DNA of 64,000 bases from Shigella phage A2. Below the pieces are notes generated by a model. The model had not been told where the DNA came from, did no database searches, and worked only from the letters and a program-made list of their open reading frames with translations. Shown here in pieces: positions 18,043 through 64,000 of the stretch. The stretch's first letter is position 1. Each line of letters begins with the position of its first letter. Made by a program: the position numbers and the translations under genes. The stretch lies in the sequence record OP197928; one strand, written 5' to 3'.

Positions 18043-18207
18043 TTACTCTTCTTTTTCTTTAGATTCCTCTTTCTTCTTTTTAGGAATCTGTTCAGGGCCT
18101 TTATTTACTACAGCACCTGATGTTGTTCCAGTAGAGATATTTTCAGGATTACCACCTGAATCTCCAGCAACCATATCTTCTTTAATAAATTCTTTATATG
18201 TTTTCAT
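18043..18207 (-). CDS. small protein with internal-protein-type capsid targeting sequence (MKTYKEFIKE), 54 aa; not in ORF track
   Basis: ATG 18205-18207 with AGAGGT SD; N-terminus matches CTS consensus MKTYQEFIAE; Gly/Lys/Glu-rich remainder. Confidence 0.5.
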   Translation of the reverse strand: MKTYKEFIKEDMVAGDSGGNPENISTGTTSGAVVNKGPEQIPKKKKEESKEKEE

Positions 18208-22440: not shown

Positions 22441-22465
22441 ATTATAACACAATAAATTTAGGCAT
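22441..22465 (-). promoter_or_regulatory. possible middle promoter upstream of uvsX (imperfect MotA box)
   Basis: reverse complement ATGCCTAAAtttattgtgtTATAAT. Confidence 0.3.
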
Positions 22466-23307
22466 TAATCAACTGCTATCGGATGAATAGCATTAAACTT
22501 ATGAAATGCTTCTGATTTTTCTTTACGAGAAACACACATGCGAAGAACCTTTAATGGCTCGTCTTCTTCACCCAACGATTTTCGTTTTTCAATATTAGAA
22601 GTTTTCCAACGAGCTTGCTCTGGAAACTCTCTATTGATTTGCTCAAGCGCTCTATTATGTTTAGAATTACTACGAATTGAACTACACCCACCAGGAGCTT
22701 GCGCTTTACCTGATACAACCAGATATTTGAACAAGGCCAAATGCGGATAACCTTGATTAATTAAATTGAGAAATGCATACATATCTTCGCACAAATCAAT
22801 TTTTCCATACCCAATTTGTTCTGTCGTAAGTTTTCCAAGGTCATACCATGTATTCGTGAATCCATATGAATTTTCACGATAATTACCCCAAGATGAAGTA
22901 ATTTTAAAAATAGGTAGACGAGCATGGCCATGATAATACCCGCAATCCATGGCATCCTCAACATATTGAATCAATTCATAGAACTGTTCACGAGTCAATT
23001 GATTGACTTTATCTACGCAACGACGGTCATCTCTTTTTCGCATTGAACTCATACGAATAGTAGTATCATCGTCAATCATCCAGATTCGTTGACCTGCATA
23101 CATATCAGTAATTGCTTTACGAGTACCAGCAATTCCGTTTACATCATCAGGAATAGTTATAATTTTAGCTCTAGACCCATAAGCGTCATAATAAGCTTTT
23201 TCTTCATGTTCACGCACTACAATATGGGGTTCATAATCAGTCGGAAACATATCAAGGGCAGAAACTGCCCCGACCCGCTGATAACTTGGAATTACGAATT
23301 GAATCAT
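22465..23307 (-). CDS. glycosyltransferase in the beta-gt slot; candidate HMC beta-glucosyl-alpha-glucosyltransferase type, 280 aa
   Basis: DxD-type motif IWMIDDDTTI; located between uvsX and 42; length unlike T4 beta-gt (351 aa). Confidence 0.5.
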   Translation of the reverse strand: MIQFVIPSYQRVGAVSALDMFPTDYEPHIVVREHEEKAYYDAYGSRAKIITIPDDVNGIAGTRKAITDMYAGQRIWMIDDDTTIRMSSMRKRDDRRCVDKVNQLTREQFYELIQYVEDAMDCGYYHGHARLPIFKITSSWGNYRENSYGFTNTWYDLGKLTTEQIGYGKIDLCEDMYAFLNLINQGYPHLALFKYLVVSGKAQAPGGCSSIRSNSKHNRALEQINREFPEQARWKTSNIEKRKSLGEEDEPLKVLRMCVSRKEKSEAFHKFNAIHPIAVD

Positions 23308-24044
23308 TTCCACTCACCGTTATAATCTTTTTTCACAATATGAGTTTCGCCAGTATTCCACCAATGATCAACCAAGTAAAAATGACGAGAATATACATGA
23401 AGACTTCCAACATTCCATATAATAGAACCTGCTTTATACTGACGAGTTGAATCGCCTGCATTCAAATCAGATACTAATTTATCTAATACGTATTTTTGCC
23501 ATGCATAATCATTACGGAATCCGAAGACCACGTCATTTGAGCGCATGCTTACTACTGCATTGACTTTCTTGTCACGAATCAGATACTGTACGGTATTCGT
23601 ACACATGAAATCTGACATACCATCTTTATTATAGTCAAACTGCATAGATGGACGAGTATAAATCATGATACCACGTCGAGAATCAGGATTTTGACCAAGT
23701 TCAGCTAAACACATATCATACTGGGCATAGTTATCTTCTGACCAAATAGCCCAACCATAATTCGAGTTAATTTCGCCTTTAGAAGATGCTACCTGCTGCC
23801 AAATCTTTGGTGTTTCACCTGGAATATCTTTAACAAACAAGCTCTTAGATTTATACCATTCAAGTTCGCGCTGAATGTATTCATCATTAAGAGCACCAAA
23901 AATAAACGGTTCATCTGCTACAAATGATGCGCCAATAATTTCAATAGTTTTAACACCAGTTTTATCAACTACGAAATCTTTTTCTTTTAATGCAAGCCCC
24001 AAATGAAGACGGATTTCTTCAACTGTCATAGAGTCACTAATCAT
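23304..24044 (-). CDS. 42: dCMP hydroxymethylase gp42, 246 aa
   Basis: thymidylate-synthase-like fold; 246 aa, N-terminus MISDSMTVEEIRLHLG. Confidence 0.9.
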   Translation of the reverse strand: MISDSMTVEEIRLHLGLALKEKDFVVDKTGVKTIEIIGASFVADEPFIFGALNDEYIQRELEWYKSKSLFVKDIPGETPKIWQQVASSKGEINSNYGWAIWSEDNYAQYDMCLAELGQNPDSRRGIMIYTRPSMQFDYNKDGMSDFMCTNTVQYLIRDKKVNAVVSMRSNDVVFGFRNDYAWQKYVLDKLVSDLNAGDSTRQYKAGSIIWNVGSLHVYSRHFYLVDHWWNTGETHIVKKDYNGEWK

Positions 24045-61033: not shown

Positions 61034-61363
61034 TCAATTAGAAAATAAATTTATCCAAGATTGTTCTTTAATTAAAAATGGCTCAGAATCATATGCCATT
61101 AAACTTTGGGTGATTAGTCCTTTAAAAGGTCCATCAATAAATTCCATGGTAAAATATGGAATTTTATTCATTAACTGTGCGTTAGGAGCAGTGCACAACA
61201 CTCTGCATCCTTTGAATACGCCTTTTTGTAATTTGTATTGCTTGGGATAAAATTCGCTTAAAATGTTGTTATTTGCCAAAATTTCAAAATGATTCACCAA
61301 TTTATTTTTAATAGTTTTTGGCGAAAAATAAAGATATTCGAAAAGCTGAGTGTCTGTCATCAT
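61034..61363 (-). CDS. hypothetical protein, about 109 aa
   Basis: ATGA overlap with upstream gene. Confidence 0.4.
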
Positions 61364-61899
61364 TGCATTCCGATTACGAAAAACTGTGGACGAGTAATAC
61401 CACCAATGCAACATTTACTATTACAGCAGTAGTGTACAGTGTCAATATGGACGCTATAAATCTTATCCATATCAGGAGATTTGACAGGCTCATCAATTAT
61501 ATACAAAATTCGCGAAAGCGATAAACCTCTGAACTTGCTTCCTTTATTACCAATAAAACTGCGCACAGAATCAGTAAATAAACGAAAACGTATATCATCA
61601 TTAGAATAACGCGAAAATTCCTTTTTAATGTTATTTGCAGAAATTTTAGCGTAAGCTGAAGTATTAGAAAGAACAATAACTGTTCCGCCATCATACAACC
61701 AATTAGCAGCAAAGTTAGTCACAGCAATTGATTTACCGGATTGACGTCCACCATCTATACGAAGTGTGCAGTACTGTTTAAGTAATTCTTCAAATGGCGG
61801 GATATATTCGTTTTTACAAATTTCTTCTACTCTAGCGTCAGAATGGTGTGTAAAAGCATTCATCAGGGATAGATAAGGACCAGTTAAAAATGTTCTCAT
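61360..61899 (-). CDS. hypothetical protein with P-loop-like motif, 179 aa
   Basis: ATG 61897-61899; Walker-A-like GGRQSGKS. Confidence 0.45.
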   Translation of the reverse strand: MRTFLTGPYLSLMNAFTHHSDARVEEICKNEYIPPFEELLKQYCTLRIDGGRQSGKSIAVTNFAANWLYDGGTVIVLSNTSAYAKISANNIKKEFSRYSNDDIRFRLFTDSVRSFIGNKGSKFRGLSLSRILYIIDEPVKSPDMDKIYSVHIDTVHYCCNSKCCIGGITRPQFFVIGMQ

Positions 61900-62039
61900 T
61901 TTATTCTCTCTAAATTTGGGCCATTCCGTGGCGCATGAATTGTCCATTCCTGCATTACCCATTACCGCACTTGGGCTCGACCTTATTACAGGTTGGCGGG
62001 AATCCCTCACAGAATCATGAGGTCCAGGTTGTTCCCATA

Positions 62040-62513
62040 TTATTTGAACGATTTAACGTACTGAATAGAACCCTTACTATTCACAAAGGCAATTTTACCA
62101 TTTTTATTATACATGGTAGCAGTACGCTGATAACCATAGGTTTGTTTACCAGATTGATAACCAACTAATGCAAAATTATCTTCACCCATTTTATTCTGTT
62201 TAGCGCGAATGCGTTCATGACCATGTGCCATAAGAACCTTAGCATCACCAGTTGCAATGGATCGACGAGTTTTTTCATCTTCAACTGCATTAACAAAGTC
62301 GTCAAATGAATCAAATTTAGCATGAGATTTATTATACAGTTTTCCATCTACTGCATAATTATATCCTTGTACATCCATCTCAACTTCTGTACCATCATCC
62401 AATACAGCAGTGATTTTTTGACCTTTTTTAAATTTCAAAAGATCAGTAAAAGATTCAGCAATAATTTGAGAATTAATAGCTGCTTCAGTAATAAATTCTT
62501 GATATGTTTTCAT
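62040..62513 (-). CDS. putative head internal protein with capsid targeting sequence, 157 aa
   Basis: N-terminus MKTYQEFITE (CTS consensus); AAGGAAA SD. Confidence 0.6.
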   Translation of the reverse strand: MKTYQEFITEAAINSQIIAESFTDLLKFKKGQKITAVLDDGTEVEMDVQGYNYAVDGKLYNKSHAKFDSFDDFVNAVEDEKTRRSIATGDAKVLMAHGHERIRAKQNKMGEDNFALVGYQSGKQTYGYQRTATMYNKNGKIAFVNSKGSIQYVKSFK

Positions 62514-62529
62514 GTGTTTCCTTTAATTT

Positions 62530-62847
62530 TTATTCTTTAGGGAAGTTTTTAGAATATGCATCATAAAGCTTATTTCCAATACGGCGGAAAACTCTAGCCG
62601 CAAAACGATTTTCTGGGTTTTTAATCATGATTTGCATCATATAAGTACCCGCGTCAGAAAGAGCTTCTTCATAGTACCCGTTAATTTCTTTAAGAGTCCT
62701 ACGTTTACCGCCAGGACCATCAACAGTGATTTTCCATTTACCTGTAGAAGTGCGACTTGGCGGCTCAACTTGTTCAATCCAGATATAACCGCCTTCTACA
62801 CGTTGTCCTGCGGCAGATTCTGCAATAAATTCTTTATACGTTTTCAT
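62530..62847 (-). CDS. putative head internal protein with capsid targeting sequence, 105 aa
   Basis: N-terminus MKTYKEFIAE (CTS consensus). Confidence 0.6.
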   Translation of the reverse strand: MKTYKEFIAESAAGQRVEGGYIWIEQVEPPSRTSTGKWKITVDGPGGKRRTLKEINGYYEEALSDAGTYMMQIMIKNPENRFAARVFRRIGNKLYDAYSKNFPKE

Positions 62848-62856
62848 ATGTTTCCT

Positions 62857-63273
62857 TTAAATGTAAATATTTTTGCCGTAATACTTGTACCAGTGTGGCT
62901 TCATTAAAATTTTTTCATCGAGTCGTTGTTGACTCAATTTAATAGCTGATTTGCATGGATTATAATCATTTTTCCATTCTGCTGGAATATCACTGATGTC
63001 AGGAACTTCAGTATCTTTTATACTAAACCCACGTTTTAAGCATTCCGTTATAATGTCTGATTGACGCTTTCGCAAAAATTCTAACTTATCGTAAAAGAAC
63101 GTAACATGACCAGAACCTAAAATAAACTCGGAAGATATTTTAAAATCTTTAACCCGCTTACCATTTGCCACGTGTTTACGAACTATACCAAAAACACGTG
63201 GCAATTCACGGTATTCTGCGATTAAATGCTGATCAGCAAGTTCAGATACTAAAGTCAAATTAATACGAGTCAT
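62857..63273 (-). CDS. denV: endonuclease V (pyrimidine dimer DNA glycosylase) DenV, 138 aa
   Basis: [17 protein letters not shown]...YRELPRVFG; 138 aa. Confidence 0.9.
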
Positions 63274-63298
63274 TTTATCCCTCCAAGTAACTGTGAAT

Positions 63299-63328
63299 AT
63301 ACTATCACAGTTCTAGGAGAAAGTAAAC
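63299..63328 (-). promoter_or_regulatory. early promoter upstream of denV
   Basis: reverse complement GTTTACtttctcctagaactgtgaTAGTAT. Confidence 0.5.
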
Positions 63329-63332
63329 AACT

Positions 63333-64000
<668 letters not shown>

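Follow-up and report, generated by a model that had tools for sequence, protein, structure and literature searches.

Between the vs-region genes and denV of Shigella phage A2 (sequence record OP197928), two small open reading frames (ORFs) begin with the capsid-targeting sequence (CTS) of the T-even internal head proteins. They raise the question of whether this phage encodes undescribed injected effectors, relocated relatives of the internal proteins of phage T4, or proteins that have already been named. We analysed the 64,000-nt stretch of A2 DNA that contains them, referred to here as the window. From the conserved signals of the locus and the published behaviour of related proteins we conclude that they very probably are the T-even internal head proteins Ip10 and Ip4 in the variable Ip locus, which would be packaged and injected, most plausibly to act against type IV restriction.

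A2 is a Tequatrovirus with probable T2/T6-type DNA glucosylation. All genes of the locus lie on the minus strand, and in the direction of transcription their order is e, denV, ip10, ip4 and the vs.8 homologue, with the vs.7 and vs.6 homologues further downstream. Gene e, which encodes lysozyme (63333..63827; Pfam Phage_lysozyme), forms the upstream border of the variable Ip locus and is 95.7% identical to T4 e at the nucleotide level. The vs.8 homologue (61360..62010; phrog_1488) forms the downstream border, and on its side the DNA is 95.9% identical to T4 up to position 62040, where the match ends exactly. Enclosed by these borders are denV, a diverged endonuclease V allele in a replaced segment (62857..63273; Pyr_excise; phrog_1183), and the two ip genes of the ORF list. 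The ip10 gene (62530..62847) starts 9 nt past the denV stop and encodes 105 residues, with a predicted mature form of 95 residues after cleavage at Glu10 (pI 9.6). The ip4 gene (62040..62513) starts 16 nt past the ip10 stop and encodes 157 residues, 147 of them in the predicted mature form (pI 9.1). The ORF list thus returns the two minus-strand ORFs exactly where an earlier, sequence-only reading of this DNA had placed them. That reading had also described them as lying between the vs genes and denV, with denV abutting e, and this gene order is borne out: relative to denV, the ip genes lie opposite to where T4 has them, and the T4 order (e-ipIII-ipII-denV-vs.8 in NC_000866) had been given correctly.

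The assignment to the internal proteins follows from the N-termini and from the DNA around them. Ip4 begins with MKTYQEFITE (codons at 62484..62513; the 157-residue ORF begins MKTYQEFITEAAIN, MKTYQEFITEAAINS) and Ip10 with MKTYKEFIAE (62818..62847; the 105-residue ORF begins MKTYKEFIAESAAG, MKTYKEFIAESAAGQ). As summarised in PMC9026906, CTS positions 4 and 7 determine targeting, and positions 8 and 10 determine processing by gp21 (Mullaney and Black, 1996). Both proteins carry Y4 and F7, the capsid-targeting residues, and the gp21 site [LI]xE at residues 8-10 reads I8-T9-E10 in Ip4 and I8-A9-E10 in Ip10, with E10 invariant in both family alignments. Furthermore, the CTS codons belong to a 60-nt direct repeat (62479-62538 versus 62813-62872, 80% identity), each copy of which is a conserved minus-strand ip leader composed of an AT-rich stretch, a AAAGGAAACAT ribosome-binding site and the CTS codons. 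Copy 1 (62813..62872) precedes and enters ip10, its 5' part overlapping the final five denV codons, and copy 2 (62479..62538) extends from upstream of ip4 into that gene, so that each ip gene has its own AAAGGAAACA ribosome-binding site. The A2 leaders are 91-95% identical to those of T4 ipII and ipIII: copy 1 matches the ipII leader at 94.7% over 57 nt, and copy 2 matches both T4 leaders at 93% over 45 nt. Because of this repeat and its identity to the T4 leaders, the common N-terminus is not a product of chance. Judged by these residues and leaders, both ORFs carry a bona fide T-even CTS, and both genes stand in the variable Ip locus, between e/denV and vs.8, behind a conserved ip leader. 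The same traits characterize T4 IPI*, IPII* and IPIII*, which are likewise small and basic, have a CTS cleaved by gp21 after Glu and are preceded by the conserved leader with its ribosome-binding site; the IPII and IPIII genes also occupy the e-to-vs.8 locus. The earlier assignment of both ORFs as capsid-targeted internal proteins is upheld by these residues and by the leader identity.

Elsewhere in the 64 kb, a six-frame motif scan detected just one more CTS-like start, which belongs to the homologue of gene 61.1 at 18207. This gene (18043-18207, minus strand, 54 residues) lies just upstream of primase gene 61, and its product begins with MKTYKEFIKE, a CTS-like leader (Y4, F7, I8, E10); the remainder is a low-complexity tail rich in Lys and Glu. 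The T4 protein, gp61.1, begins with MKTFKEFIKE. Gene 61.1 is conserved in 1228 phage records, and in distant genera the similarity is confined to the part after residue 10. In the literature searched, a CTS on gp61.1 was nowhere mentioned.

Both A2 proteins belong to families that have names. We took the original ip4 to ip10 naming from GenBank annotations and from papers that cite the earlier work. Over residues 1-157, Ip4 (62040-62513) matches the 158-position model of Pfam family DUF7412 (PF24183; E 9.4e-96, 318.7 bits against a cut-off of 27), and it matches phrog_3155, 'internal virion protein', with an E of 1e-101. It is 99.4% identical, over all 157 residues, to the T2 protein annotated as ip4, and the homologue in PP01 is called IpIV. 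T2 ip4 has the same CTS and lies, as in A2, immediately upstream of vs.8, but in T2 it follows e directly and denV is missing, whereas in A2 denV and Ip10 intervene between e and Ip4. A tblastn search placed Ip4 in 470 phage records, 306 of them at at least 95% identity; a further 160 records, from Klebsiella, Salmonella and other phages, show 60-80% identity. Ip10 (62530-62847) matches phrog_3966 (E 5.8e-34) and is 70% identical over its full length to the Ip10 proteins of Shigella phage SP18 and coliphages VR20 and VR25, the name also being used in VR7. It is present in 189 phage records, with at least 95% identity in 131. These proteins have the same CTS, and in VR20 the gene is also immediately downstream of denV, as in A2. 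The Karamvirus homologue is approximately 52% identical, is encoded between e and denV or in place of denV, and lacks the C-terminal SKNFPKE tail; the A2 allele is the Tequatrovirus variant. The pair as such is annotated as Ip4 and Ip10 in two near-identical genomes, JLBYU22 (98.2% nucleotide identity) and teqsoen.

The genes are thus the already named ip4 and ip10, and the locus is an ordinary one with no new kind of feature. This does not sustain the earlier suggestion of novel injected effectors. One could still propose undescribed effectors in a new genomic position, since the bodies of both proteins are unlike T4 IPI, IPII and IPIII, the position of the genes is unlike that in T4 and neither protein has a structural neighbour. 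We regard such a proposal as highly improbable, because both proteins are named and catalogued (T2 ip4; Ip10 of SP18, VR7 and VR20; DUF7412; phrog_3155; phrog_3966), occur in 470 and 189 phage records, with the same stretch in about 132, and belong to variable loci that have been described before. No paper naming Ip4, Ip10 or DUF7412 was found in the literature searched, and no proteomic report on either protein.

Public records also contain misleading labels for this region. Ip10 is listed in some of them as 'IpII internal head protein' or 'internal head protein III', a homologue of vs.8 as 'large terminase subunit' and several vs genes as 'endoribonuclease RegB'. These annotation errors have apparently been propagated in part by similarity. 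The vs.8 homologue of A2 itself contains a P-loop-like GGRQSGKS motif and has weak matches to AAA_14 and to phrog_2, the terminase-large-subunit ATPase family (E 9e-6).

Are Ip4 and Ip10 nevertheless the counterparts of T4 IPII and IPIII? BLASTP comparisons of Ip4 and Ip10 with T4 IPI, IPII and IPIII, and with each other, aligned little beyond the leader, and the alignments with IPII and IPIII stop at residues 12-14, save for one low-identity stretch between Ip4 and IPII. When the mature parts, freed of the CTS, were compared with IPI*, IPII* and IPIII*, they scored like shuffled sequences (z from -1.4 to 1.25) with one exception, Ip4 versus IPII, at z 3.2. Here 18 of 2000 shuffles scored as high (p ~0.009 before correction for eight tests), and among eight tests we consider this borderline score unconvincing. 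Separately, a BLASTP alignment of Ip4 with IPI that reached residue 57 (E 3e-4) was rejected, because with the leader removed its z fell to 1.2 and was equalled by 276 of 2000 shuffles. Similarity in the mature protein past the CTS, which would mark T4 IPII or IPIII orthologues, was found for neither Ip4 nor Ip10, in agreement with the earlier remark that their bodies do not resemble IPII or IPIII. In the phage collection searched, IPIII is found in 261 records and IPII in 198, compared with 470 for Ip4, the most widespread internal protein there, and 189 for Ip10; the counts for IPIII and IPII imply that the T4 arrangement is not the commoner one.

These data bear directly on the idea that Ip4 and Ip10 are orthologous to T4 ipII and ipIII but have diverged, and simply owe their new position to an inversion or transposition of denV. 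Two ip genes beside denV, as in T4, leaders that are 91-95% identical and the databases that call Ip10 'IpII' or 'internal head protein III' could all be read in this way. Against it, the likeness ends at about residue 14 and the mature bodies score like shuffles (best z 3.2); the true IPIII and IPII homologues form separate sets, and in Klebsiella phage KEN37 an Ip4 homologue is followed by a second annotated internal virion protein. We therefore find relocation of the T4 genes scarcely credible. The earlier reading had held that high identity and synteny with ipII and ipIII would make this an ordinary known locus; that identity is absent, yet the locus is ordinary and known all the same, through the names given in T2, SP18 and VR20.

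The position of the ip genes is explained by the behaviour of the interval as a whole. Relative to T4, the breakpoints lie at 62040 and 63284, between flanks that are approximately 96% identical. The first coincides with the stop codon of Ip4 and corresponds to the position of the denV stop in T4, and the second falls inside the intergenic region that follows e. Between them are the bodies of the A2 ip genes, which have no T4 counterpart, and a denV gene that is only 77.6% identical to T4 denV in nucleotides and 78% in amino acids (E 1.5e-62 for phrog_1183). By these values denV is a mosaic insert. Its final five codons, AAAAATATTTACATTTAA, are the AT-rich sequence found 5' of T4 ipII, and the protein therefore ends in KNIYI instead of KAIYA. 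From this match between the end of denV and the DNA preceding T4 ipII, the leader can be recognised as a recombination joint.

Comparison with other phages shows how often the interval has been rebuilt. Compared with T2 (e-ip4-vs.8, no denV), A2 has an additional segment with denV and Ip10. In VR20 the order is e-ip5-denV-ip10-orf-ip7-vs.8, in Enterobacter phage myPSH1140 an Ip10-like gene lies between e and denV, and in Cronobacter phage Pet-CM3-4 an Ip10-like gene follows e and denV is absent. These four phages all differ, in line with the earlier description of internal-protein loci as hypervariable. About 132 records carry the stretch vs.8-Ip4-Ip10-denV-e, with at least 80% of 61900-63400 covered. 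Several Tequatrovirus records match this query in two pieces and over approximately 80% only, which would fit the absence of a segment roughly as long as Ip10. Ip genes thus commonly lie on the vs.8 side of denV. Ip cassettes are found before or after denV or take its place, and their shuffling proceeds via the conserved leader that contains the ribosome-binding site and CTS codons.

Descriptions of variable Ip loci go back to Repoila et al. (1994) and Comeau et al. (2007), according to later papers including PMC2839356, which also cites more than 30 IP variants. According to Arbiol et al. (2010; PMC2839356), PeSL-like elements at the two variable IP loci had been seen by Repoila et al. (1994). 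In mechanistic terms, recombination within the common leader and CTS codons and within the promoter-hairpin element would swap, insert or delete ip bodies and denV. The arrangement in A2 is unlike that in T4 because the interval from e to vs.8 is a cassette site.

The element after e is located in the intergenic region between e and denV (63274..63332, minus strand; identified from its sequence and its homology to T4 and T2). It contains an early-promoter-like sequence, GTTTAC and TAGTAT separated by 18 nt, which is overlapped by a hairpin (-20.6 kcal/mol, z -4.3) whose 3' arm holds the denV Shine-Dalgarno sequence GGAGGG. The sequence after e is common to T4, where it precedes ipIII, to T2, where it precedes ip4, and to A2, where it precedes denV. 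This element probably serves as the early promoter of denV, Ip10 and Ip4. In transcripts that read through from e, the denV ribosome-binding site would be sequestered by the hairpin, and in those that begin within the element it would be free. A promoter and hairpin after e, with short leaders flanking interchangeable ORFs, are also features of the PeSL-type mobile regulatory cassettes (Arbiol et al., 2010) and of the modular Ip loci (Repoila et al., 1994). A2 differs from the PeSL cassettes in that such an element precedes denV only, while Ip10 and Ip4 are tightly packed and have no PeSL-like element of their own, the repeated unit being the ribosome-binding site with the CTS codons.

Late expression would depend on promoters further upstream. 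Near the locus, perfect late-promoter motifs occur only as a pair of TATAAATA motifs 5' of e (63841..63861, minus strand; motif scan), and T4 has the same pair. Between e and vs.8 there is no TATAAATA late promoter, so that neither ip gene has one of its own; a scan that allowed one mismatch performed no better than chance, and no terminator-like site was found on the minus strand from e to vs.8. The late motifs that lie only 5' of e, the lack of a terminator and the separate ribosome-binding sites together suggest that ip10 and ip4 probably share transcripts with denV, which would start at the element after e and, late in infection and by read-through, at the e promoters.

Mature Ip4 and Ip10 are basic and Lys-rich, with pI values of 9.1 and 9.6, like IPII and IPIII. 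Their dN/dS values (0.03-0.29) indicate that both are under purifying selection: 0.03-0.15 for Ip4, and 0.25-0.29 for Ip10 compared with the VR20 and Karamvirus homologues. The AlphaFold2 model of Ip4 (pLDDT 73.6) consists of an N-terminal helix, a beta-hairpin, three short helices and a C-terminal beta-meander; that of Ip10 (pLDDT 83.7, pTM 0.75) is a small alpha/beta domain of three strands, a long helix and two strands. The structure prediction that had been proposed as a check gave models (pLDDT 74 and 84) but no informative structural neighbour for either of them, Foldseek against BFVD returning solely Ip10's own homologue. Sequence searches of the PDB and scans of Ip4 and Ip10 with PADLOC and NCBIfam were empty or below threshold.

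When 1.84 billion cluster representatives were searched exhaustively in HMMER with the profile of Ip4, only seven proteins were returned. Two of these distant relatives open with MNFEQFLNES and MNFKDFLNES, a variant leader that again has L-N-E at its end. Across the distant homologues of Ip4 no His, Asp, Glu or Cys is invariant, which points to a binding protein and speaks against an enzyme. A catalytic role of the conserved HGH and GEDNF motifs of Ip4 was considered and rejected, since their residues are lost in the distant homologues.

The route by which the proteins would reach the host cell is suggested by T4 biology together with the conserved signals. The CTS would direct Ip4 and Ip10 to the scaffolding core of the prohead, where gp21 would cut it off after Glu10. 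Mature Ip4 (147 residues) and Ip10 (95 residues) would then stay in the head with the DNA and be injected along with it, presumably by the same mode of delivery as the internal proteins of T4. By analogy with these, each would bind and stoichiometrically block one host defence that attacks the incoming glucosyl-hmC DNA.

Alternatively, Ip4 and Ip10 could be generic basic proteins that fill the head, neutralising DNA charge and aiding packaging or ejection, and have no specific host target. Their basic, Lys-rich mature forms would suit this, given that lysines of the T4 internal proteins touch DNA phosphates in the head (PMC3012670), and so would the published panel of GmrSD systems, which yielded no target for them. 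We nevertheless consider a purely structural role distinctly improbable. In both families the body is folded, well conserved and under purifying selection, and is not a low-complexity basic tail; the pattern of presence and absence and the cassette turnover are typical of arms-race genes, and every Ip of known function (Ip1, Ip2, Ip3 and Bas37_0260) has one specific defence target.

The published record for such targets centres on GmrSD. The GmrSD of E. coli CT596 is the target of IPI* (reviewed in PMC3012670), and IPIII is required for infection of ECOR17 and acts in the cytoplasm without its CTS (PMC9391042). Silas et al. (2025; PMC12373910) showed that T4 Ip1, Ip2 and Ip3 each block one distinct GmrSD without cross-protection, and proposed that the proteins of both Ip loci, one between e and vs.8 and the other next to 57B, all target GmrSD variants. 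According to a 2025 preprint (bioRxiv 10.1101/2025.11.20.689424), McrBC is inhibited by Bas37_0260, a CTS-bearing protein that phage Bas37 encodes at its ipI locus, and thus the target range of the CTS class extends past GmrSD. Given that each of Ip1 to Ip3 blocks one GmrSD and Bas37_0260 blocks McrBC, the target of Ip4 and Ip10 is probably a modification-dependent (type IV) restriction enzyme.

This analogy is weakened by the negative GmrSD panel. The experiment that had been suggested for these proteins, expression against GmrSD, is largely published: 'ip4-10' showed no reproducible inhibition of additional active GmrSD groups (PMC12373910, Supplementary Fig. 9), with alleles that may differ from those of A2. 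In addition, T2 is restricted by GmrSD-CT596, GmrSD-ECOR21 and GmrSD-ECOR17, all three characterised enzymes (PMC12373910). Since T2 carries a 99.4% identical Ip4 and is still restricted, these three enzymes are not targets of Ip4. Both results, together with folds for which there is no precedent, would fit injected inhibitors of defences other than type IV enzymes, such as systems that detect the entry of DNA or an early infection. We hold such inhibitors to be rather unlikely, because type IV enzymes are the targets of all four such CTS proteins that have been characterised, and because the panel comprised just eight active GmrSD systems of a very diverse family (PMC12373910). A type IV enzyme thus stays the preferred target. 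It is also conceivable, with a chance that we put somewhat short of even, that Ip4 and Ip10 each counter a common enterobacterial defence outside the tested GmrSD groups, be it an untried type IV enzyme that acts on gentiobiosyl-hmC or a system of another class.

The DNA modification of A2 is of interest in this context. A minus-strand gene at 22465-23313, which lies between uvsX and gene 42, encodes a T2/T6-type beta-glucosyl-HMC-alpha-glucosyltransferase (phrog_842, E 2e-89) and not the beta-glucosyltransferase of T4. This gene indicates that A2 DNA is probably gentiobiosylated, as in T2 and T6, which bears on the type IV enzymes that A2 meets.

If Ip4 and Ip10 do counter a defence outside the tested GmrSD groups, they would act via folds that have no known structural precedent. 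Since they enter the cell together with the DNA, internal proteins are the first line of counter-defence of a phage. Tequatrovirus phages of the therapeutic type commonly carry Ip4 and Ip10, and knowing the targets of the two proteins would help to predict the host range of these phages.
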